Made by a program: the position numbers and the translations under genes. A stretch of DNA of 24,000 bases from Acidimicrobiales bacterium (GTDB lineage Bacteria; Actinomycetota; Acidimicrobiia; Acidimicrobiales; RAAP-2), in contig JADMIJ010000012.1 in NCBI GenBank assembly GCA_015478655.1, positions 25,947-49,946 of the forward strand, given 5' to 3'. The notes beneath the pieces are model-generated. The model was given only the letters and a program-made list of their open reading frames with translations, was not told the DNA's origin and ran no database searches. This document shows positions 1,902 through 14,557 of this stretch, in pieces (the first letter of the stretch is position 1; each line of letters starts with the position of its first letter).

Positions 1902-3068
1902 CTAGACCCCCGGGGCCCACGCGGAGCCTGTCGACCAGAGCGCGCGGTTTAGCACGGTGAACCACAGGACCGGGAGGACGATGAAGGCGACCCACAGCCA
2001 CGGCCAGAGGGCCGGGACGAGGGCGAGCACGAGCAGCAGGTAGCTCGTCGCCTCGCCCAGGCCCATGATCCGCACCCGGCGCGGCCGGTCGAACGGGCCG
2101 GGGCGGAGCAGGTGGAGGGCGTAGAACGAGAACACGATGTAGGACGCCCACCCCACCACGATCCCCCACGGCGGTCCGGCCACGGCCCACGCGACGACGC
2201 CGAGCGCGAGGGCCTTGCCCCCGGCGAGCCCGTACGCGAACAGCGAGGCCCGCACGCCGGGGAACAGCCAGTCGGCCGTCAGGCCGGCGCCGCTCTCCGT
2301 CACCGTCACCACGGCGCCCCCCTCCCGGGCCGCCTTGAGGAGCCCCGCGAGGACCGGCACCGGCGGCTCGATCCTCGCGCCGAGGCGGCGGAGGATGTTC
2401 CCCTCGTTCGCCTGGGCCAGCTCCTTCGTCTCGCCCGCGACGGCGATCTGGAACGCCGTCATGGCGAAGGCGTAGACCACGACCGCCCACACGAGCACGC
2501 CTGGGGCCCTGCCCCACGCGAGCGCGGACGCGAGGAAGGCCAGCGCGAAGGCGCCCGAGATCTCGAGGACCGCGAGGGGCTTGTTCCGCTTCCCGAGGAA
2601 GTTGTACGCGTGGCCGAGGAGGATGTACCCGGCGAACGGGGCCAGCGCGACCCAGGCACGGGAGACACCCACCAGCGAGATCATCAGTACGATTCCCGCG
2701 ATTTGTAGTGCCGCGACGAGCGTCCATCCCGAGCGGAGGGAGACCCGGCCGGCCACCACGGGGTGGTCGGCCTTCGCCGGGTCGAGCCGGTCGTACGCGA
2801 TGTCGGTGAGGGAGTTCTCCCCGAACCCCGCGAAGTGGCAGAGCACGCCCAGCAGGGCAAAGACCGGAAGGGTCCACAGCGGCGCCCCGCCGACCCACGC
2901 CGCGAGGGGGAACCCGGCCCCCTCGACGGCGGCGGTCTGGGCGCGGAAGAGGCGGAGCGCGTCCCGCGGGCCGACGGTCACGGCCTCCCCCGCCGTCGCA
3001 GGAGCCCCCGCAGCCCGAGCGGCGTGTGGGGCCGCGTCCCCCGGGGGTGCACCCCGCCGCACACGCAC
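1902..3068 (-). CDS. UbiA-superfamily polyprenyltransferase-like membrane protein
   Basis: The first Asp-rich motif NSLTDIAYD (NxxxDxxxD) at 2790-2816 is followed by HPVVAGRVS. A degenerate second motif GETKELAQANEGNILRRLG is present. The protein is polytopic and hydrophobic throughout. The start is uncertain: GTG at 3068 or GTG at 2981. Confidence 0.7.
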   Translation of the reverse strand: MRVRRGAPPGDAAPHAARAAGAPATAGEAVTVGPRDALRLFRAQTAAVEGAGFPLAAWVGGAPLWTLPVFALLGVLCHFAGFGENSLTDIAYDRLDPAKADHPVVAGRVSLRSGWTLVAALQIAGIVLMISLVGVSRAWVALAPFAGYILLGHAYNFLGKRNKPLAVLEISGAFALAFLASALAWGRAPGVLVWAVVVYAFAMTAFQIAVAGETKELAQANEGNILRRLGARIEPPVPVLAGLLKAAREGGAVVTVTESGAGLTADWLFPGVRASLFAYGLAGGKALALGVVAWAVAGPPWGIVVGWASYIVFSFYALHLLRPGPFDRPRRVRIMGLGEATSYLLLVLALVPALWPWLWVAFIVLPVLWFTVLNRALWSTGSAWAPGV

Positions 3069-3126
3069 AGGAACCCGAGGGGCCCGGCCGTCTCGCGGAG
3101 CTTCGGGAGCCGCACGACGGCGGGCA

Positions 3127-3709: not shown

Positions 3710-4792
3710 TCACGGCGCCTCGCCGACCGGGTGGCGTTCGAGGTACGCCTCGAACGTGTGGTTCCGGAAACTCGCCGGTCCCCGGTTGACGTACCGGGCG
3801 AAACGGTTCAGCCACGGGTCGTCGGTCCGCATGTTGTCCCGCATGACGAACGGGTGGACCCCGAACTCGCCCCACAGGACGTCGAACCGGAGCCTGACCT
3901 CGTCGTGGCACCGGCCGCACGAGTGCCCCCCGTCCGCATAGCCGCACGGATCGCCCGTCGGGTGCCGCCCGCCCTTGGGCGGGTGCCCCGACAGGATGTA
4001 ACAGGTGATCTCCTTCGGGTCGAACCCGGCCCGCAGAAGGCGGGGGACGGCCCTCCTCACCTGCGGCTCGATCCCGATGTAGTCCCATGCGATGTAGAGT
4101 TTCCGGTTGTCGAACTTCAGACTCCACGGCTTGTGGTCGGCGAGGATGCCGGCGAGCTCCTCGCCGTGGTCCTCCCCCTTCGGAGGACCCGCCAGTATCC
4201 GGGCGTCGTAGCCCTGCGTGATAGAGTACCTCCGTCCGGAGTCGCGGAACCATCCGATGACGTCACGCTGCAGCGCCGGGGGATGCGCGGCGAACTCGTT
4301 GTCGAGGAGGAGCACTTTCGAGAGGCCGGACGGGACCCAGTCCCGCGGATGGCGGAACGGGTACCGGGACATGGCCCCCTCCTTCCGGGACACCAGACAG
4401 AAGTCGCACGCGCGGATACAGCCCCGCTGGCAGAACCCGATCGCGCGGTCGTCGCCGTAGAGGTCGTAGTCCGGCAGGGTCGCGTCGACATCGGCGGGGA
4501 GCGTGGACCACGCCCCGGCGGGCTTTCCCCAGTCGACCCCGCTCCCGCCCAGACGGACGTCCGGGCAGGCCCGGGAGAGACCACGGGCGACCGCCTCCGC
4601 CGTGGGCCGGTTCCACGAGAACACGCACGATACGTAGGCCCGGTCCGGCTTCCCCGCGTCGAGCGGAACCTCCGGCCGGGCCATGCCGCAGGACAGCGCG
4701 ACGGAGTCGCCCCGGACCCTGTGCCATGCGGCGAGCTGCATCAGCGCGAGGTTCGGGATCGTCGAGTCGTGGTCGACTAGCAGGACCCTCAC
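3710..4792 (-). CDS. radical SAM enzyme with an N-terminal Rossmann/B12-binding-like domain (COG1032-like)
   Basis: CIRACDFC (CxxxCxxC) is encoded at 4397-4420. The N-terminus [23 protein letters not shown] resembles class-B/COG1032 radical SAM proteins. The GTG start (4790-4792) overlaps the TGA (4789-4791) of the upstream MTase. The 859-aa ORF in the track is a chimera; only its 3' 1083 nt look like coding sequence. Confidence 0.8.
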
Positions 4793-6702
4793 GGCGCCCC
4801 CGCGAACTCCGTCAGCCGGGCCTGCGCCGGGTGGCTCGCCGTCCGGAGCTGTGCCACGTGCGCGGGCGAGACCACGCCCGCCTCGGCGATCCGTTGTTCG
4901 ATGAGGGGGACGTACGCCGGGTTCAGCTCGATCCCGATGGACCGGCGGCCGAGGCGCTTCGCCACCGCGAGCGTAGTCCCGCTCCCGGCGAACGGGTCCA
5001 AAACCACGCAGGGGACCGTCGGCCGGCACGCGCACCCGGGCCACGACACGTCGGCCTCCACGATCTTGTACGTCTCCTCGACGGCCTTCCCGGCCCCGCC
5101 GTAGGCCTCGACCTCCTCGTCGGTCGCGTCGGCGGCCGCGCCCCCGAGGCCGGACTTCTGGCCGAGGATGCCCTTCTTCGCGTCGCGGACCCGGATGTTC
5201 ATCGTGGAGACGCGCTTCCGGACCGTCCTGTGCGTCCACGACGCCCCGCACTTGTCGCAAGGGTCCTTGCTGCACCCGCAGGTCGGCGTCCAGCCGACGG
5301 TGATCTTCTCGAACATGCCGGCGAGGATGCGGCGCTTGACGTCCGACGCGTTCTCCGCGCCGGTCCCCTCGTAGTCCTTGACCGCCCGCCCCGAGTACTC
5401 GCCGTCGGCGTCGCCGCCCGAGGCGACCTGCCACTCCCGCTGGGGATTGCCGAGCCCGACGACCCGCTCCCACGGCGCGCCGCACTCCGGGCAGGCGCCA
5501 CGCTCGGACGTCCCGGCGAGGAGGCATATCTCGGCGAGGCGCTCGGGGAACACCGCGAAGTGGGCGCCCCTGTACCCCTTCGTCGGGATCGTCCAGACGG
5601 AGCGGAGGTTCCGGCCCGAGCCGGCCTCCAGCGGCAGGTCGGTCGCCTCCCGGAAGCTCGGGTTCTGCTTGACGCCCGACCCGGACCCGGCGTGCTTGCG
5701 CGCCATGTTCTCGAGGGCCCGCCGGGCCGAGCGGCTGGGGTTCGTCCCGCGGGAGTAGTCCTTCGGGCCGCCGGTCTGCTCCCACAGGGACCTCTGCGAC
5801 AGGCGCAGGTGCGTGCCCTCGGACAGGGGCTCCCGCACCGCGTCGGCGTCGTAGAAGTACCTCGGCGACCTCGTCAGGTGGAACACGTACGAGTGGGCAC
5901 GGGTCGTGCGGTCCTTCGTCGACTCCGGCATGGGGTTCTGGTGGTTCCAGATGTTGTCCTGCCGGAGGTACCACCCGTCGCCCTGGAGGGCCAGGGCGAC
6001 GCGGAACGGTATCAGCGCGAGGTCCTTCTCCTTCAGCTCGTCGTTGCGCTTGTCCATCAGCCCGGCCTGCTCGTGCCCGGTCAGGTCCCGGTTGCTCAGC
6101 GTCGAGGCGGCCCACCGCCTCGGCCCGGTCAGGCCGGCCGGGTGGGTCGAGTACGTGTCCCCGATCTCGAGGAAGAACACCCCGTCCTCGCGGAGCACGC
6201 GGCGGACCTCCCGGCACACCGAGACGATGTGCGCCACGTAGAGGGAGGGTGTCGGCTCCAGGCCGAGGGAGCCGAACCACGCGTCGCACCTGGAGCAGAA
6301 CCTCCCGCCGATCGCCTCGTAGTTCCCCGCCGATGGCAGGTTGCCCTCGTCGGCCTCCTTACGGGCACGGCGTGGCGGGGTCGCCACCCACTCGTGGGCG
6401 CATGGGGGGTCACCGCCCCAGAGCACCTCCTGGCCGGGTATCTTCCCCGTCCCCCCGCACCACTGGCAGTCGGGGTCTGGCTCCTTCTTCCGGACGGCCC
6501 CGTCGGCCCTCCTCGGCGGGGGGTGCTCCTCGTCGCCCCGGACGTAGTCCTGCGAGCAGACACAGAGGTCGTACCTCCTCAGTCCCCAGAAGGCCGGACT
6601 CGTCGCGACGCACTGGACCGATCCGCCGGGGAGCTTCCGCAACCAGTCGAGGACGTCGCCCCGCAGGACCAGCGGCTCGGGGCCGGTCGGGAGGTCGGTC
6701 AC
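4789..6702 (-). CDS. DNA methyltransferase, N4-cytosine/N6-adenine family (PF01555-like, beta class) with Cys-rich insertions
   Basis: Motif IV-like TSPAFW occurs near the N-terminus. [38 protein letters not shown] and [10 protein letters not shown] are present, as is motif [30 protein letters not shown] near the C-terminus. Zn-ribbon-like CPECG and CDKCG inserts are present. The GTG start (6700-6702) overlaps the ASCH stop. Confidence 0.85.
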
Positions 6703-7009
6703 CGGACCACCTCGAACCGGACGACGGTCACCTCGAGGAACGGGTCCCACTCCCCGTGAAGGAGCTGCCACTGGTCCATGAAGTCCTCGACGGACCGGCA
6801 CCCCTCCCGGCGGGCGGCGGCGTCGGTGATCCCGTGCAGCGGCTCGCGGCGCACCGAGAGGACCCGGACCTTCGGGTCGCCCGGGCGAACCGGCTGGTCC
6901 TCGTGCGGTAGACGCCGCCGACGCGGACGTGCGGCCGCTTCCAGACCCGGCGGGTCTCGGTCTTCCGCCCCCGGACGATCTTGAGGAGGTTCTGCTGGGT
7001 GAAGATCAC
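6699..7009 (-). pseudogene. ASCH-domain protein whose reading frame is broken once (-1/+2) near 6879-6900
   Basis: The N-terminal half (GTG at 7009) reads [34 protein letters not shown]. The C-terminal half is in another frame: [59 protein letters not shown], ending at TGA 6699-6701. Each frame reads as low-complexity junk beyond the junction. Confidence 0.65.
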
Positions 7010-8346
7010 GGGCAGTCCCCCGTCAGCCGCCGGTGTAGTAGTCGCAGAGCGACTCCAGCTTGGAGAGGCGAGCAAGAGTTGCCGTAAGCTCGGAGCTGGT
7101 CATTTCTCGCGCCTCCGCCCACACGGGGCTCGGAAACCCCATCAGCCACGCTACGAACCGGCTCGACAGTCGCGGGCGCGAGGTCGGGCCACCGGGCGAG
7201 GACCCGCTCCCACTCCTCCCGCTCGCCCGGGCCGGGAGGCCAGAGTGGGATACCTGCTCGTTCAGGGGCCTCGCGTTCCTGCCCATCGTCGCCGCCGACG
7301 CCTCCCCGCTCCGGAAGTCCCGCGCCGCCGGCGTCGCCCACATCTCGATAGCCTGCCCCGTGAGGTGGTCCTTGTCCACCATCCCCCGGTGCTCCCCGTA
7401 GATCGCCCGCGGCGTCCGCCACCGCTCCGCGAACCCGTCGAGGGAAAGACCCTGCCGGCCGTCCGATGCGTGTCGGCGGTACGTCGGCCCCCGGACCGCG
7501 CGCGGGCTCGGCCAGTTCGTCGAGCCCTCGTTCGTGAACTCCGCCGCCCTCGTCAACGTGTCCCCCCGGCGGCGGTCCTCGCTCGGCCCCGCGTGCGCCT
7601 GCTCCGACGCTTGGGGCGTCGGCCACCGCGTCACGGCCTTGGACAGCGCCTCGTGGACGTTCGCCGAGTTCGCCTGCTGGCGCTCCTCCGCCCTCGGCGT
7701 CGGCCAGTTCCTCACCGCCGTATGCAAACTGTAGTCGGTCGTCGACCAGGTCCGGTTGTGGCTCGACTCGCCCGGGCCGTCCGACGCCCTCGGAGTCGGC
7801 CACGCCGTCCCGGCGGCGGGCGAGCGCGAACCATCGTCGCCTGAGGTGGGGCGCTCCGACGTCCGCCGCGGCCAGTACACACCATTCCGTATCGTACCCG
7901 AGTCGGACCAGGTCCCCGAGAACCTCCGCGTGGGCTGATCCGTCAGAGACCGTGAGAAGGCCCGGTACGTTCTCCAAACAGACGTACTCGGGTCGTACCT
8001 CGCCAACGACACGGGCGACCTCGGGCCACAACCACCGTTCGTCCGACGGTCCGGCGCGCTTGCCGGCCGTGGACGACGGCTGGCACGGGAATCCGGCGGT
8101 GACCATGTCGACCCGGCCTCTCCAATCGGCGGCAGGGAAATCTTCGACACGGCCGCAGAAAATAGGAAACGGCTCCAGGGTCTCGTCCTCCATCCTCGCC
8201 AGGAGGACGGCACAGCAGTATGGGTCCCACTCGACTGCACATACCACGCGGGCTCCGGGGAAGGCGATGGCGACGCCTGCGTCGAGTCCGAAGACTCCTG
8301 TGAACAAGCTGAGTATTCTGGGCGCAGAACCGTTGGGATCAGCCAC
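7006..8346 (-). pseudogene. dcm: DNA (cytosine-5) methyltransferase whose conserved motifs are distributed over two reading frames
   Basis: Frame A (stop at 7006) carries FTGVFGLDAG (motif I), GFPCQPSS (IV, Cys at 8083-8085), CLENVPGLL (VI) and APHLRRRWF (VIII). At the 3' end it carries RNDQLRAYGNSCSPLQAGVALRLL (X). Frame B (stop at 7023) carries six W-P/A/R-T/S-P repeats (WPTPRASDG, WPTPRAEE, WPTPQASE, WPSPRAV, WRTPRAI, WATPAARD) and RFVAWLMGFPSPVW. See findings. Confidence 0.7.
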
Positions 8347-8347
8347 A

Positions 8348-8848
8348 CTACCTCGCCCCCCACGGCGGACGGTGGCTGGCCCAGACCGCCGTCACGTCGT
8401 CCCAGAACACCTCGACCTCGCCACTCTCGACGCGCCTCCGCTCGACCTTCTCCACCGCCGCGTACACCATCCCGAGGACCATGTCCCGGGCGTTCAGCTC
8501 GTTGCGGACCCAGTGCTCCATGATCCGGACCCACGGGAAGGGTGCCCGAGCACGTAGACGTGCCCGGCGCTTCTCGGCGTCCTCGATGTGCGCCTTCCAG
8601 AACCCGACCCTAGACTCCGGGCGGCGGTAGTGGATGTCGCAGGCGTGCCAGAAGCATCCGTCCACGGCGACGTACAATGGCCCGCGGATCGTGGGCACCT
8701 CGACGTCGGCGCTCGGCCGGACCCCGGGGTACATCCGGTGCCGGACGTGGCCGCCCTTGAGGATCTCGTGGACCCGTCGCTCGATCCCGTTCTTCCGGAG
8801 CCCCGTGCCGATCTTCGCCATGTGGGCCGACCGCTGCGCCGGGGTCAT
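8348..8848 (-). CDS. vsr: Vsr-type very-short-patch-repair (T:G mismatch) endonuclease
   Basis: VAVDGCFWHAC...FWKAHIEDAEKRR matches the Vsr core as I remember it. TAG at 8348-8350 lies 1 nt before the dcm GTG. I prefer the ATG at 8848. The track start at 8917 would place a perfect hairpin (8866-8885) inside the coding sequence. Confidence 0.75.
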   Translation of the reverse strand: MTPAQRSAHMAKIGTGLRKNGIERRVHEILKGGHVRHRMYPGVRPSADVEVPTIRGPLYVAVDGCFWHACDIHYRRPESRVGFWKAHIEDAEKRRARLRARAPFPWVRIMEHWVRNELNARDMVLGMVYAAVEKVERRRVESGEVEVFWDDVTAVWASHRPPWGAR

Positions 8849-9683: not shown

Positions 9684-9862
9684 GGCTTCCTCCATGCCGC
9701 GAGCAGCCGCTCGGCGAACAACCGGGTCGCCGACGACCGCGGAAGCTCCTTGCGCGCCCCGGCCGCGAGGTGGAAGAGGTCCTGCCGCATCTCGGCGATC
9801 AGGGCGTCGTGATCCAGGCAGGCGTTGCACCCGTCGCAGTTGACTAGTCCGCACGACGTCAA
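9680..9862 (-). CDS. small Cys-rich protein (60 aa)
   Basis: The TTG start (9860-9862) overlaps the helicase TGA (9859-9861). Peptide: LTSCGLVNCDGCNACLDHDALIAEMRQDLF... Confidence 0.45.
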   Translation of the reverse strand: MTSCGLVNCDGCNACLDHDALIAEMRQDLFHLAAGARKELPRSSATRLFAERLLAAWRKP

Positions 9863-11508
9863 CGCACCCTCCCCACGTCGGCCCGCGCCCGGAACCACCC
9901 GGGCAGCGACGCCCAGTACCGTCGCAGGAGCCGGTCCGCGTTCGCGTCGAGGATGTAGGTCTCCCCGCGGTCGTCCCTCGAGCGCATCACCCGGCCGCAG
10001 GCCTGGAGCATGTCGGTAATCGCCTGCTCCTCGTACCACTGGCGGCCCCCGGGCCGGTCCCGGCGGCGGACCACCCACGGGTCGCCGAGGTTCGGGTACG
10101 GCGCCTTGATCACGACCTGCCACCGCGCCTGGTCCCCGACGAGGTCGAGGCCCTCCGACATCGCCACGCCGACGAAGACCGAGTCCCGCCGCCCGTCGCC
10201 CCTCCACTCCTCGAGGCTCTCGTTCCGGTCGCCGCGGTCGTGGAACACGAGCCGCGCGGAGAGCCCGGCGGGGGCGTGCGCCTCGACGTGCTCCCGCACC
10301 ATGTACGAGTTGCAGTGGATGATCCCGCGCTCCGCCGGGTGCAGGCGGGCGATGCGGGCCAGCTCGGAGACGACCCGCGGCAGCTCCGAGGCCATCCGCT
10401 CCCTGTTGAGGCGGACGGTTCCCGTGAGGCGGACCGGCGCGTTCGCGGGCGGGAACGTGTCCGGGACGGTGACGGTGGCCCACTCCCCCGGGAGGCCGAG
10501 GTACCTCACGAGGCCCGGGATCCCGAAGAAGGTCGCCGAGCCGAGGAGGATGTGGTCGAACTGGTCCCAGACCCTGGCCACGAACGGGCCCACCTCGAGC
10601 GGGCGCCAGAGGTGCCGTTTCATCGCCGCCTCCCATGTGTGGACCCACTCGACGTCGTCCCGGAAGAGGTTCTCCATGAGCCGTTCGCACCGGCGGACCA
10701 ACGCCGCCTGCCGCTTGACCTCCTTCATCTCCGACCCGCTGTGCGGGTCCGCCGCCGCGGTCATGGCCTCGAGCCCTCGGCGCTGTGTCTCAGTGTAGTC
10801 CGGCAGGTGTTCCCGGAGGAAGTCCAGCGGGTCCTCCGCCAGTCCGATCCCGTCGAAGTCGAACTCCGGGAGCGTCCTCTCCCCGACCATCATCGCGTAG
10901 AACTGGACCAGGTCCTCCGGGAGCCCGTGGGCCTCGTCGACGACGAGGAGTGATCGGGGGTCCCATCCGTAGCCCGGGAGGATGCCGATGAACATGTAGG
11001 CCAGGGTAGTGACGGTGGTCCGGGCAATCTGGGCCGCCGCCTTGGCGGTGTAGTAGGGGCACTCCGGGAGCTTGGGACATCCATTGACGCATTGGTCGGT
11101 GCAGCTCCGGGGGTCCTCCTCGGTATGGTCGTGTTTTCCCCTCGGCCAGTACTTGATGAACGTGCAGGGCGCCCCGTCGGCGGTCGCCTCTGGGTCCCCG
11201 CCGGGCAACCCCCGGACGTGCGGGCACGGGTAGTTGTCCCGGCCGTAGAGCGTGCGGGCCCCGAGCCCATCGAACTTCCCGCCGGGCGCGGTGTCCCGTC
11301 CGTACTGGTCGACGAGGAGGGTCTGCGGGGTCGTGACGTAGGTCGGGCCGGTCCCCCGGGCGGCGAGGAGATGGATCAGGCTCTTGCCCGATCCTACGGG
11401 CGCGTCGAGGAAGACGGTCTTCGTGCCCCCGGCGAAGCGGTCGAGGACGCGCCGGATCGTCTCCTCCTGGTTCTCGCGTAGGACGATGTGCGGGGGCGGA
11501 CGGATCAT
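9859..11508 (-). CDS. XPD/Rad3/DinG-like superfamily-2 helicase with a Cys cluster (putative Fe-S domain)
   Basis: Walker A APVGSGKS is at 11380-11394 and DEAH (VVDEAHGLP) at 10927-10938. A Cys cluster lies between them (YPCP, APCTF, SCTDQCVNGCPKLPECPYY; 11059-11226). The ATG at 11508 overlaps the AbrB TGA (ATGA). Confidence 0.8.
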   Translation of the reverse strand: MIRPPPHIVLRENQEETIRRVLDRFAGGTKTVFLDAPVGSGKSLIHLLAARGTGPTYVTTPQTLLVDQYGRDTAPGGKFDGLGARTLYGRDNYPCPHVRGLPGGDPEATADGAPCTFIKYWPRGKHDHTEEDPRSCTDQCVNGCPKLPECPYYTAKAAAQIARTTVTTLAYMFIGILPGYGWDPRSLLVVDEAHGLPEDLVQFYAMMVGERTLPEFDFDGIGLAEDPLDFLREHLPDYTETQRRGLEAMTAAADPHSGSEMKEVKRQAALVRRCERLMENLFRDDVEWVHTWEAAMKRHLWRPLEVGPFVARVWDQFDHILLGSATFFGIPGLVRYLGLPGEWATVTVPDTFPPANAPVRLTGTVRLNRERMASELPRVVSELARIARLHPAERGIIHCNSYMVREHVEAHAPAGLSARLVFHDRGDRNESLEEWRGDGRRDSVFVGVAMSEGLDLVGDQARWQVVIKAPYPNLGDPWVVRRRDRPGGRQWYEEQAITDMLQACGRVMRSRDDRGETYILDANADRLLRRYWASLPGWFRARADVGRVR

Positions 11509-11762
11509 CGCTTCCTCGCCCTCGGTGTGTCCCACCGCGCGCCCCGTACCCCGACTATCCGCAGGACCAGTACGTCGCCCTCTGCGATGCCCAGGGTCTC
11601 CAGCATCAGATGGTCGACGGTAATCTGGCCCCTCTTCCTCAGTTTCGCCGCGAACTCGATCTGCCGCTCGTCGGGGAGCATCTTGAAACTCTGGTGGCCT
11701 GCCATGCGGGACCCCGTAACACTCTCGGATATATTCTGATTTCCTCGCACGGGCTGGGTCAC
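11505..11762 (-). CDS. AbrB/SpoVT/MazE-type DNA-binding protein (85 aa)
   Basis: KLRKRGQITVDHLMLETLGIAEGDVLVLRIV fits the swapped-hairpin AbrB fold signature. The GTG start (11760-11762) overlaps the primase TGA. Confidence 0.6.
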   Translation of the reverse strand: MTQPVRGNQNISESVTGSRMAGHQSFKMLPDERQIEFAAKLRKRGQITVDHLMLETLGIAEGDVLVLRIVGVRGARWDTPRARKR

Positions 11763-14557
11763 TCGCGCCCCCGGAACGGTAGCCGCTCCGGCCAGCCCCC
11801 GGGCCGGTAGTGCTCCCGGCCGTCCTCGCCGACGTACGACTTGCCCAGGCCCATCAAGCGGCCGAAGGCCCCGCTCACCGCCCCGGCCGAGTGGGCGGTG
11901 CGAAGACGGGTGCGTGTCACGTCTCGGTCCCAGACCCCCGGGCCCTGCGCGTCGAGGATCGGGATCAGGTCCGCGTACGCCGCGTCGATTTCCAGGTCCG
12001 GAGGGGCCGCCACCACTCCCCCCTCATCGCTCCGTTCCAGCGCGGCCCTGGCCCCGTCCGCCCGTGTAGCGCGCCCGGCGAAAACGTCCTCCGGGTCCGG
12101 CGTCGTCCGGCCGGCCCGGCCGGGCTCGAGCGCTAGCTTTTCGTTGTTCCTCCCTGATGCTGTTCCCGAGTTTTTCGGGGAGGCGTTTTGACCCGGCCGG
12201 GCCGGCCGGGCTCCGTCAGTGGACCCCCCCGGACCGTCCGGATCGCCGTCGGTCCGTTGACCCCCCCCTTCGGCGTCGAGCCGTTTCTGTCCGTCGCTGG
12301 TCCCGGGACCCTGTAGCCCGGACTGCGACGAACCCCCGTACCGGAACCTCAGCCCCCTCCACGCTTTCTCGCGTCGGCCCTCCACCTGCGGGCGGTGGGG
12401 GCGTATGCCGGGGACGATCCGCACGATCTCCGCCCCGACCTCCTGTTTGGTCATCGCCTCGGGCACTCCGTTGGCCTCGCAGAACTCCGCGTACCGCGCG
12501 TAGAACTCGTCCTTCAGGACCCACTCGTCGGGGTCGCGCACCACCTCCTCCTGGACGAACCACTCGAGGGACGCGGACCGCTTGAGCCAGTCCTCCGTCG
12601 CCCGCCGCACCGTCTCGCCCGGTGCGAACCGGCCCCGTTCCCATAGACGGTGCCGCCCCTCCAGGGCCCAGTTGAGGATCCCCGGGAGGGACTTGCAGAG
12701 GCGGGGAACGAGGAACGAGTCCCGCCGCTCAAGCGGGATGAAGACCGGCCACTCGATCACGAGGACCCGGCGCTTGAACGCCCCGTCGATCCTCTTGACG
12801 GCGGGGAGACGCTGGCCGCTGAACACCAGCTTGGCGCCGTTGACGAACTTGAACGGCTGCTTGTTCTTCTTCTCGGCCCGGACGTAGTCCCCGCCGGTGA
12901 GACTCTTGAGCTTGTCCGTCTTGGTGAGCGTCTGGAGCGGGATGTCGGCCGCGATGTTGGCGAGCTTCCCGTAGAGCTCCGCCACCGAGAACCGGTTCTC
13001 GGAGATCGTCTGCGGCGGCTCGTGGGAGCAGCTCGCGGTGCCTAGGAGTTCCGCGAGTACCGACAGGAACGTCGACTTGCCGTTCGCCCCCTCGCCGACG
13101 TGGAAGAACATCGTCTGCAGCTCGTTCCCCGGCGAGAGGCAGTAGCCGACCATCTCCTGGATGAGCGTGCGGTTCTCCGGCTCCGGCTGGACCTCGGCGA
13201 GCCACGCGAGGAACGGGGCCGGGTCGGCGTCATTGTCGTACGCCACGGGGATGCGGTACGTGAAGCGGTCCTTCTCGGGATCGTGGTCACGGCGTTCCCC
13301 CTTGCCGAGATCGTACACGCCGTTGACCAGGTTCACGAGGCCGGGCCGGTTGAACGTCTCCCGGTGGACGAAGGTGGCCGCCCGCACGGCGTTGACCACC
13401 TCGTTCCGGTGGTTCTTCTTCGCCGAGGCCGACCTGATTTGGAATTGCCGCTCCACCCACGACTCGATGAACGCCTCGGCGAACCCGTTGTAGACCCCCC
13501 TCTCGTACCGGAGGATCTCCCGGGTGTCGGGGAGGGAGCAGAAGTGCTCCTCCTGCAACACCCGCCATACCGCGCCGGCGTGGACCCACGCGCCCTCGGC
13601 GGACCACATCGGAGGGGGCTCGCCGATCAACGGACCGGTGGCGGGGAAGCCCGGCAGGACGTCCGATGGTGGTGTGGTCGGGCTCTCCACCCGCCGATCG
13701 GCCGGCGCTGATGGGCCGGGCGGGGTACCCGCACTTCCTGCCTCGGGTGTGTGAACCGGGTCGGCGCCGGTGTCCGAGCGGGTGGAGTTGGATGGGGGCG
13801 CGGGCCGGCCGAACTTCCCGAGCGCGGACCGGACCGCAGTCTCGATGTCCCTGTCCCGGGACGGCCACCGGTCGTCGTCACTGGCCGCGTACATGGCCGG
13901 CTTGACGATGGCGAGGGCCTGCGCCTCGGTGATCCCCGGAGTGCGGGAGACGACCGAGGCGGCCAACGAGATCAGGTAGTCGTGCCGGCGGCCGTGCGGG
14001 ATCCGGCCGTCGGTGTCGGTCCCGAACTGGCGGGGCGCGGCCGGCGCCGGAGCGGCCCGGAGGAGCCACCCCGGCAGCATCGGCGGTCTCGGCCCGCCGA
14101 CCAGCGGGACGACCCACTCGTACGTGTTCCCCGAGGCGTGCGGGCTCGGCGGGGCCACGACGTACGAGCCGTCGCCCTGGAGGTCGAGCCCCGGCCGGAA
14201 GCCGTGGGCCGGCGGCACGTTCCCGCCGGGGTGCGCGAAGTACCGGTGCTCCCCGCCTCCGCCCGTCTTCGCGACGGGCCCGCGCGGGAGCAGCCCGTGC
14301 TCCTCCAGCAGGGCCTCGAGGCTGTCGTCGCCGCCGTGGCGCGGGTCGACGTCGAGGACCACGAGGCCGGACACCGACCCCATCGGGACGCCGATCCCCG
14401 CGCCCGGATTCTCGGCCCACCACTTGTGGATCGTGTCCGCGTCCCGGGTCGAGTCCTTGAAACCGTGGGGCGTGAGCGGGGTCTTGTCGGCCTTCACGGG
14501 GAACACGGGGAGGCCCGACTTAGCATAGCAGAGTGCGGCCTCGAGGAGGGTGGTCAT
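11759..14557 (-). CDS. bifunctional primase-polymerase (prim-pol) fused to a D5/P4-type SF3 helicase (932 aa)
   Basis: The N-terminus GLPVFPV...LVVLDVDPRHGG...GGGEHRYF...GSYVVAPPS is a prim-pol signature. Walker A VGEGANGKSTF is at 13070-13096, with downstream D5_C-like sequence. The C-terminal roughly 200 aa are a low-complexity linker followed by a small domain. A single frame runs throughout. Confidence 0.85.
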   Translation of the reverse strand: MTTLLEAALCYAKSGLPVFPVKADKTPLTPHGFKDSTRDADTIHKWWAENPGAGIGVPMGSVSGLVVLDVDPRHGGDDSLEALLEEHGLLPRGPVAKTGGGGEHRYFAHPGGNVPPAHGFRPGLDLQGDGSYVVAPPSPHASGNTYEWVVPLVGGPRPPMLPGWLLRAAPAPAAPRQFGTDTDGRIPHGRRHDYLISLAASVVSRTPGITEAQALAIVKPAMYAASDDDRWPSRDRDIETAVRSALGKFGRPAPPSNSTRSDTGADPVHTPEAGSAGTPPGPSAPADRRVESPTTPPSDVLPGFPATGPLIGEPPPMWSAEGAWVHAGAVWRVLQEEHFCSLPDTREILRYERGVYNGFAEAFIESWVERQFQIRSASAKKNHRNEVVNAVRAATFVHRETFNRPGLVNLVNGVYDLGKGERRDHDPEKDRFTYRIPVAYDNDADPAPFLAWLAEVQPEPENRTLIQEMVGYCLSPGNELQTMFFHVGEGANGKSTFLSVLAELLGTASCSHEPPQTISENRFSVAELYGKLANIAADIPLQTLTKTDKLKSLTGGDYVRAEKKNKQPFKFVNGAKLVFSGQRLPAVKRIDGAFKRRVLVIEWPVFIPLERRDSFLVPRLCKSLPGILNWALEGRHRLWERGRFAPGETVRRATEDWLKRSASLEWFVQEEVVRDPDEWVLKDEFYARYAEFCEANGVPEAMTKQEVGAEIVRIVPGIRPHRPQVEGRREKAWRGLRFRYGGSSQSGLQGPGTSDGQKRLDAEGGGQRTDGDPDGPGGSTDGARPARPGQNASPKNSGTASGRNNEKLALEPGRAGRTTPDPEDVFAGRATRADGARAALERSDEGGVVAAPPDLEIDAAYADLIPILDAQGPGVWDRDVTRTRLRTAHSAGAVSGAFGRLMGLGKSYVGEDGREHYRPGGWPERLPFRGRE

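Follow-up and report, generated by a model that had tools for sequence, protein, structure and literature searches.

We analyzed a 24,000-nucleotide window of an Acidimicrobiales bacterium genome (NCBI GenBank assembly GCA_015478655.1, contig JADMIJ010000012.1, positions 25,947 to 49,946; all positions below are those of the window), which has a G+C content of 70.8% and carries on its minus strand, between 8348 and 7006, a cytosine-C5 DNA methyltransferase (C5 methylase) locus whose conserved segments alternate between two overlapping reading frames, A and B (A+1). The recurrence of this layout in many bacteria and phages gives it the look of two overlapping genes and not of a broken one; we think it probable that they encode two subunits of one enzyme, alpha from frame A and beta from frame B, with beta translated from a start at the 5' end of the locus. 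The alternation itself had been described in the original prediction, which was made from the DNA letters, and it is upheld both by the coordinates of the motifs and by a per-frame alignment of a homolog. In the order of the DNA, the conserved segments are motifs I to VIII in frame A, the target-recognition region in frame B, a conserved island in frame A, motif IX in frame B, and motif X in frame A. Over the 1.3 kb of the locus, frames A and B have no internal stop codon and frame C has nine; since the pattern also recurs in independent loci, chance is excluded as its source.

Two open frames and the segments they carry

The features of the locus are as follows (ORF, open reading frame; aa, amino acid; a "shadow" is a stretch that reads the conserved sequence of the other frame out of frame).

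8346-7006, minus strand: frame A ORF, GTG start, TGA at 7008-7006, 446 aa; proposed alpha subunit, in which the catalytic large domain is followed by a long linker that is not conserved, the island, and motif X
8348-7023, minus strand: frame B ORF (A+1), GTG at 8348-8346, stop at 7025-7023, 441 codons; proposed beta subunit, in which an N-terminal catalytic-domain shadow precedes the W-x-T-P recognition region, motif IX, and a tail
8350-8344, minus strand: start region TAGTGTG, made up of the stop codon TAG of the upstream Vsr gene (8350-8348), the frame-B GTG (8348-8346), and the frame-A GTG (8346-8344)
8319-7819, minus strand: catalytic domain, frame A, with motifs I, IV, VI, and VIII within aa 12-176
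8313-8275, minus strand: motif I (S-adenosylmethionine binding, F.G.G), frame A
8178-8059, minus strand: frame-B N-terminal shadow, about B aa 58-97, with the family motif SW.GW.TRPWSR.LFG...; conserved beyond what frame A demands
8094-8071, minus strand: motif IV (PCQ, catalytic cysteine), frame A
7974-7957, minus strand: motif VI (ENV), frame A
7880-7878, minus strand: GTG, the lone start-like frame-B codon between B aa 120 and the first W-P-T-P; possible internal beta start
7854-7819, minus strand: motif VIII (Q/H.R.R), frame A
7818-7243, minus strand: frame-A shadow linker, G/R/A/P/D/E-rich, stop-free, non-conserved
7802-7251, minus strand: target-recognition region, frame B, with six W-x-T-P repeats starting at 7802, 7706, 7625, 7514, 7421, and 7340
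7242-7168, minus strand: island WPPGPGEREEWERVLARWPDLAPAT (WPPGP...LAPAT), frame A
7172-7119, minus strand: motif IX RLSSRFVAWLMGFPSPVW, frame B, with WLMGFP at 7148-7131
7172-7119, minus strand: frame-A shadow of motif IX, reading VRSVADGVSEPRV
7107-7036, minus strand: motif X RNDQLRAYGNSCSPLQAGVALRLL, frame A, aa 414-437

Motifs I, IV, VI, and VIII, which together on one chain identify a C5 methyltransferase, are all present in frame A; the Pfam family DNA_methylase matches this frame at aa 10-181 only (E value, 1.2e-33), and TIGR00675 matches it as well. Motif X, a GN..P helix that is C-terminal on the catalytic chain, also lies in frame A, in a divergent form (GNSCSP). The variable region and motif IX, however, are not on the catalytic chain, both being readable in frame B only. 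A Pfam search with frame B gave no match; PHROG 1008 is the sole family that matches the frame-B protein of the window, which is without a Pfam or NCBIfam model.

A colinear single chain would need four frame changes. The original prediction had spoken of at least two and possibly four, and for a colinear enzyme it is the larger number that holds. Its placement of the segments was largely accurate: frame A does turn into low-complexity sequence rich in G, R, A, and P (and in D and E) after motif VIII, frame B does carry six W-P-T-P-type repeats from 7802 onward and WLMGFP at 7148-7131, and the motif-X-like tail is back in frame A from 7107. The frame-A island, for which 7159-7254 had been given, is real, with its upper limit set about 12 nucleotides (nt) too far out.

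In the start region TAGTGTG, each of the three codons shares one base with the next, and frame B is already open from 8534, upstream of its GTG. The N-terminal stretch of frame B contains WLIPTVLRPEYSACSQ and ...SSWR. The public gene call for the locus (P0001) takes frame A from an internal ATG at 8106 (8106-7006, minus strand, 366 aa); it misses motif I and all of frame B.

Comparison with a single-chain homolog

The frame-aware comparison suggested along with the original prediction was run as per-frame blastp searches of P0027, a homolog that is mostly single-frame, against the frames of the window, and the alignments change frame from A to B, again B, and back to A. P0027 aa 11-185 align to frame A (E value, 1e-40); aa 235-286, its in-frame target-recognition region, align to frame B (E value, 2e-15; 60% identity); aa 378-426 align to frame B at motif IX (E value, 0.006); and aa 393-442 align to frame A at motif X (E value, 4e-5). 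A plain tblastn search of the window with the same protein gives one long gapped frame-A alignment, which masks the frame changes. By eye, the island resembles the in-frame ARWEHVLGRPAPAPT of P0027, a match that no alignment tool gave.

The P0027 gene itself (locus L129, 619-1968) keeps a +1 ORF over motifs IV-VIII, ending in one LPTPTAKD module, and its frame-0 G+C content at third codon positions (GC3) falls to 0.5-0.7 over the same motifs; the gene may not be purely single-frame. Given this +1 ORF, the overlap may be older and more general than the sampled loci show.

Which frame carries meaning in each segment

In the neighboring genes of the window, GC3 is 0.89-0.94. It is 0.95 in frame B and 0.62 in frame A over the recognition region, 0.92 in A and 0.88 in B over the island, and 0.83 in B and 0.59 in A over motif IX; codon log-odds are +0.27 for B and -0.37 for A in the recognition region and +0.29 for A and -0.32 for B in the island. 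The tail is written in host-preferred codons when read in frame B (GC3 of 0.78, and 0.52 in A), so that codon bias and motif evidence do disagree there, as had been noticed from a hand count. Across the family, the variability of the motif X block has the period of frame A, with an entropy of 1.56 at codon position 3 versus 0.95 and 0.93 at positions 1 and 2, and that of the motif IX block has the period of frame B. The island is conserved in frame A and not in frame B in 13 of the 15 relatives compared. Segment by segment, purifying selection falls in the expected frame.

AlphaFold modeled frame A with predicted local distance difference test (pLDDT) scores of 85-97 at aa 10-180, about 30 over the linker (aa 187-363), about 60 at the island, and about 40 at the shadow of motif IX, and it predicted a helix for motif X (aa 423-442; pLDDT, 72-94). 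The best Foldseek matches of frame A are the catalytic domains of M.HhaI (E value, 2e-13) and M.HaeIII. The frame-B model is confident only at motif IX (pLDDT, 76-85) and in the tail, and a sequence search of frame B against solved structures returned no match.

Many of the frame-B "motifs" are out-of-frame shadows of frame-A motifs, and conversely. Frame-B W-K-T-S-Q is L-E-N-V-P-G of motif VI in frame A, D-x-P-A-K-T-S is G-x-P-C-Q-D-x-S of motif IV, and motif IX, S-L-N-P-L-F-V-E-W-L-M-G-W-P in frame B, reads E-L-E-P-A-F-R-R-V-A-D-G-L-A in frame A. Much of the N-terminal "conservation" of the frame-B family is the out-of-frame shadow of C5-methylase motifs IV, VI, and VIII.

Recurrence in bacteria and phages

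A protein database search with an A-B-A fusion query recovered two kinds of protein: frame-A-like proteins with a catalytic domain, a low-complexity middle, and an FPPGP...GNGVVP tail, and frame-B-like proteins, which match no Pfam domain, begin with MW.LP..., and contain W-P-T-P repeats and FVEWLMG. Full-length frame-B homologs without a Pfam domain include P0020, P0032, and P0121. When the DNA of six such proteins was inspected, both ORFs were present, co-extensive, and open at all six loci; at one of them, L001 (57% G+C), the frames have 629 and 617 codons and their starts are 4 nt apart. The ORF pair was found in L001, L002-L005, L013, L016 (46% G+C), L027, L049, L070, and others, with 7-22 stops in frame C. 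In all, the unrelated loci that carry the co-extensive pair range from 46 to 70% G+C.

We also scanned genomes, one per species, with a degenerate DNA pattern for FVEWLMG and obtained 120 loci, a sample biased to loci with exactly FVEWLMG in motif IX (FVAWLMG in the window). Sufficient upstream sequence was available for 92 of the 120, and the catalytic domain lay in the frame of motif IX in 40 and in the -1 frame, that is, frame A, in 34. Half of the 34 are of the window type, with both frames open throughout, 46-69% G+C, and 7-22 stops in frame C; the other half are of an actinobacterial type, represented by L015, in which frame A ends just past motif VIII and frame B has the recognition region, the island, and motifs IX and X. 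A further type, represented by L014, comprises 21 "same-frame" loci whose L-P-T-P repeats are readable in the +1 frame only and whose ORF linking the catalytic domain to motifs IX and X is non-conserved between them. A hint from GC3 alone of a +1-coded middle in 21 further same-frame actinobacterial loci without LPTP was left unused; P0027 also shows higher +1 GC3 over motifs IV-VIII.

The co-extensive pair is present in cultured phages as well, namely Burkholderia phage phi1026b and Synechococcus phage Yong-M2-251, where frame A alone is annotated. In Gordonia phage Float294, two "DNA methylase" genes (62 and 61) are annotated, of which the second is in the +1 frame. Elsewhere, the annotated feature beneath the frame-B match is called "hypothetical protein" or, in related phage records, "chromosome partitioning protein," and no inspected record annotated both co-extensive frames together. 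A frame-B profile matched 47,404 clusters at 50% identity (E value, ≤1e-3), 10,402 of them at an E value of ≤1e-30, and nearly all of its top 150 matches begin at residue 1. With the layout recurring in unrelated loci and phages, sequencing noise, which the original prediction had called an unsatisfying explanation, does not account for it.

No near-identical DNA was found for the locus or for the whole window among phage and plasmid records. A tblastn search of phages with the C-terminal half of the window frame B also gave no match, whereas a proteobacterial frame-B protein did match phages. Our literature search found no account of such a layout in phage or prophage C5 methylases, its coverage being incomplete and no proof of absence.

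Two sets of loci show further peculiarities. In phi1026b (L128, NC_005284, 991-3111), frame B runs stop-free and in frame into an annotated ParB-like partition gene (2290-3111), for a total of 706 codons. In L007, L008, and L065 (Streptomyces and Amycolatopsis), there are stops in frames A and B between motifs VIII and IX, and in L007, the one of the three that was read closely, the recognition modules alternate between frames, so that three frame changes would be needed; these three loci may be copies in decay or may represent yet another layout.

Selection for openness in both frames: the evidence

Synonymous codons were shuffled within each region of 17 loci to obtain the expected numbers of stops. 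Inside the catalytic domain, frame B has 2 stops versus 34.5 expected (Fisher P = 4.5e-7). Inside the recognition region, frame A has 0 versus 45 expected, a figure to which 11 of the 17 loci contribute after having been chosen because their frame A was open; in L001, which was not so chosen, there are 0 frame-A stops versus 8 expected. In a comparison free of this bias, frame A is open between motifs VIII and IX in 9 of 9 loci with motif X in frame A and in 0 of 20 loci with motif X in frame B, which have 1-4 stops each (P = 1e-7). Since the openness of frame A tracks the frame of motif X, read-through of the linker appears to be needed just when it joins motifs I-VIII to motif X. In the frame-B tail after motif IX, stop depletion is not significant (1 versus 4.8 expected), the sequence of motif X giving few chances of a stop, and we treat this tail as passive read-out.

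The 5' end of frame B is also conserved. In relatives it reads (stop)-ATG-TGG-CTC-TAC-GTC-CCG, or M-W-L-Y-V-P, conserved as M-W-L-x-x-P, and the frame-B ATG overlaps the frame-A GTG by one base (ATGTG), often with a stop codon just before it. Over the catalytic stretch, frame-B identity between distant pairs is 0.263 versus 0.225 for the null (z = 9.6; control frame, z = 5.0); over B aa 58-97, pairwise identity is 0.37-0.38 versus 0.24-0.27 for a null in which frame-A codons were shuffled synonymously (z = 7-10; control frame C, z = 3-4).

GC3 in frame A differs among the three types of locus. It is depressed across the whole catalytic domain in the window type (0.62-0.78), depressed in the second half only in the L014 type (0.69-0.76 versus 0.89-0.95 in the first half), and hardly depressed in the L015 type, which has a separate downstream beta gene (0.82-0.93). 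The extent of the depression matches the predicted extent of frame-B translation. In the L015 type, an ATG or GTG immediately precedes the first LPTP; upstream of it, visual inspection of 8 junctions showed a G-rich Shine-Dalgarno-like stretch in most. In the L014 type, a frame-B ATG is formed from a host-rare GAT codon at G[FY]D.xW in 12 of 15 loci, compared with 19% of all Asp codons (P = 2e-7); this conserved ATG lies three codons upstream of the GTG at 7880-7878 of the window, which reads ATA there.

The places where the frame changes have none of the signals that would point to a switch. Tandem Repeats Finder reported nothing in 6900-8500, and the longest homopolymer, C6 at 7562, is in the middle of a region and away from every junction. 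No in-register frame-B X_XXY_YYZ heptamer was found at the B-to-A junctions, the only one being far off at 7776; the junction sequences are not conserved among relatives; and most relatives have their first W-P-T-P overlapping motif VIII at its F-x-L-A end. Two candidate mechanisms were accordingly rejected: a phase-variable methyltransferase, there being no repeat tract or long homopolymer at any frame change, and a programmed frameshift at a slippery site, with no heptamer at a junction, no zero-frame stop, and no conservation of the junctions.

A two-subunit model and its alternatives

If the locus is two overlapping genes, alpha would consist of the catalytic large domain with motifs I-VIII, a disordered linker of about 190 residues that would be a mere out-of-frame reading of the recognition region, the island, and a motif X helix closing the large domain. 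In the structure of M.HhaI, motif X packs back onto the large domain. Beta would start two bases upstream of frame A, and its first approximately 180 residues would be mostly the catalytic domain read out of frame; its real content would be the six W-x-T-P repeats and motif IX, matching the small domain of solved C5 methylases. By analogy, the frames would correspond closely to domains, A to the large and B to the small. Alpha and beta would then assemble into a heterodimeric 5-methylcytosine methylase acting alongside the Vsr endonuclease encoded just upstream. We are evenly divided on a broader proposal, that a large and old family of phage and prophage C5 methylases is an interleaved dual-coding gene, read in two frames over its whole length, with each product bearing the sequence of the other as a disordered spacer and with overlapping starts behind one ribosome-binding site. 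If so, few known complete same-strand gene overlaps in prokaryotes and their viruses would be as long or as widespread.

Several points weigh against the two-subunit model, besides the choice of loci mentioned above. We infer, and do not observe, the translation of both polypeptides, the start of beta at 8348 and not at the GTG at 7880, the association of the chains, and DNA methylation. Some 180 mostly meaningless N-terminal residues of beta would be wasteful, relatives manage with internal starts, and, apart from B aa 58-97, the N-terminal stretch of frame B shows modest extra conservation. The frame-B AlphaFold model is weak (mean pLDDT, 53; recognition region, 40-67), leaving the fold of beta unsupported by prediction. 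The divergent motif X of the window is written in host-rare frame-A codons (GC3 of 0.52; log-odds of -0.65). The island lies in frame A here and on the recognition chain in the L015 type, which means that the assignment of domains to frames is not clean. Finally, the DNA order of the segments is that of a single-chain enzyme, as recoding would also predict.

The overlap might instead be partial, with alpha made from frame A, beta made from the internal GTG at 7880, and the openness of frame B in its 5' part owed to something other than translation. Relatives of the L014 and L015 types do use internal beta starts, an in-frame GTG is available at 7880-7878, and the frame-B N-terminal stretch is mostly of low AlphaFold confidence and weakly constrained outside aa 58-97. 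An internal start, however, fits poorly with a conserved 5' M-W-L-x-x-P start, with stops depleted over the entire catalytic domain (2 versus 34.5 expected), and with a frame-A GC3 depression that spans the whole domain in the window type only; moreover, the window has ATA where relatives have ATG. We therefore consider a partial overlap unlikely.

It is also conceivable that both ORFs are expressed and are not partners, frame B giving a stand-alone DNA-binding protein and frame A an orphan catalytic protein acting by itself or together with some other factor. The family of frame-B ORFs is very large, gene callers record its members as independent proteins, and frame B of phi1026b continues in frame into the ParB-like gene. 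Yet the recognition region and motif IX of frame B are homologous to parts that sit on the catalytic chain in P0027, and also to parts of the L015-type beta chains; frame A is without a recognition region and without motif IX, which C5 methylases need (PMC3404938, PMC2836561); and the two ORFs always co-occur, all of which makes independent roles quite unlikely.

Programmed recoding would produce one conventional chain by starting in frame A, shifting +1 into frame B, and returning, with two to four shifts in all. It would account for the canonical DNA order of the segments (I-VIII, recognition region, island, IX, X) and for the largely single-frame P0027, which has all of them on one chain. 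We find it very improbable: four shifts, two +1 and two -1, would be required, at junctions that have no in-register heptamer, repeat, or long homopolymer; the putative +1 sites are not followed by a stop or other pause codon, and there is no zero-frame stop; and the first W-P-T-P overlaps motif VIII in most relatives. Recoding also leaves three observations unexplained, namely, the openness of frame A and its tie to motif X in that frame, an open frame B with a conserved 5' start, and the dedicated start codons of the recognition chain in relatives.

A pseudogene or assembly indel errors, which four apparent frame changes in one window would normally suggest and which the further broken look of L007, L008, and L065 might recall, can be practically dismissed, given the same layout in unrelated genomes and in independently sequenced isolated phages, 0 stops in frames A and B over 1.3 kb versus 9 in frame C, and segment-wise purifying selection in the expected frame across a very large family. 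The original prediction had framed the choice as an enzyme that needs frame changes or an indel artifact, and neither fits a conserved layout in which both frames are open, frame B has its own start, and no slippery site is present. The reading that we retain is that of two overlapping genes for two subunits.

Genomic neighborhood

The neighboring genes to which the locus was related are the following.

8917-8348, minus strand: Vsr-type mismatch endonuclease gene, directly upstream (Pfam Vsr; E value, 1.2e-7)
4789-6801: N4/N6 methylase, downstream
9859-11535: helicase, upstream
11759-14557: PrimPol/D5-type primase, upstream

C5 methylases are usually accompanied by a Vsr gene, and the TAGTGTG junction suggests translational coupling of three reading frames at one point. 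By these gene assignments, the methylase is part of a mobile-element-like replication and modification cluster. At the other end of the locus, the predicted GTGA overlap with the next gene is present: the frame-A TGA (7008-7006) overlaps the GTG of that gene (7009-7007), and the frame-B TGA at 7025-7023 precedes GGGGGA at 7020-7015, a Shine-Dalgarno-like sequence ahead of the same GTG. Two further ORFs on the minus strand are odd companions for such a cluster, one with a UbiA prenyltransferase-family match (1902-3068) and one (3710-4790) with an 11-residue motif that looks to be of the radical-SAM/B12-binding type.

Significance

If the two-subunit model is correct, long complete same-strand overlaps would not be confined to small viruses, this one having been kept over 1.3 kb across phyla and G+C contents. 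Both frames would carry ancient functional parts of proteins and would not be a pair of one old and one de novo gene. The arrangement would be a natural way to produce two subunits at a fixed ratio from a single ribosome-binding site, and it would show how far C5 methylases tolerate the separation of their domains, which is relevant to the engineering of split methylases. Public annotation would be systematically half missing, recording either frame A (as "DNA cytosine methyltransferase" with a low-complexity middle) or frame B (as "hypothetical protein"). Because the cultured phages phi1026b and Yong-M2-251 carry the same arrangement, the idea is directly testable.

Comparison with known systems

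In M.HhaI and M.HaeIII, which are single-chain enzymes, the large domain contains the majority of conserved motifs, and the small one contains the variable region and motif IX (PMC3404938). The window locus shares its catalytic fold and motifs with these and with other single-chain phage and prophage C5 methylases (PF00145), and P0027 has L/W-P-T-P-type recognition repeats and an FVEWLMG motif IX on one chain; unlike in those enzymes, no one frame of the window holds motifs I to X. That the parts of a C5 methylase can function when separated has a precedent, in that several single-chain C5 methylases have yielded fragments that come together again as active enzyme (PMC3404938).

M.AquI is a C5 methylase of two subunits (PMC3404938, citing Karreman and de Waard 1990 and Pinarbasi et al. 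2002). The split falls in the variable region and leaves a catalytic chain and another one with the distal recognition region and the C-terminal motifs, a layout that is shared by the L015 type and by genes 62 and 61 of phage Float294, with a short +1 overlap. In the window, by contrast, the catalytic chain passes motif VIII without a stop until 7008 and extends to motif X; the second chain would start at the 5' end.

Long same-strand overprinted genes of viruses and reported bacterial overlaps (PMC8227390, PMC8850804) resemble the window locus in the length of the overlap, in the depletion of stops in the second frame, and in the disorder of the out-of-frame parts. The bacterial overlaps in PMC8850804 are antisense, whereas that of the window is on the same strand. 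Unlike in overprinted genes, neither product here would be de novo; both frames hold old homologous parts of one enzyme, and the overlap is complete.

M.EcoHK31I has a beta chain, the carrier of motif IX, whose coding sequence lies within that of alpha in a different reading frame (PMC2836561; described there and in PMC3404938 after Lee et al. 1995). As there, the window has a second ORF in an alternative same-strand frame within the span of the first, with motifs I-VIII and X on alpha and motif IX on beta; M.EcoHK31I needs both chains for activity, and by analogy the same would hold for the pair proposed here. The sequence relation between M.EcoHK31I and the window family, which is known from its sequences, is limited to the general C5 motifs. 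In M.EcoHK31I, beta is a short peptide nested in alpha and the recognition domain stays on alpha; in the window, the second frame is as long as the first (441 versus 446 codons), starts two bases away from it, and holds the whole recognition region plus motif IX, and the segments interleave in the order A/B/A/B/A. The window locus resembles M.EcoHK31I in principle; the differences are a second frame that is co-extensive with the first, the placement of the whole recognition region on that second frame, and the interleaving of the two.

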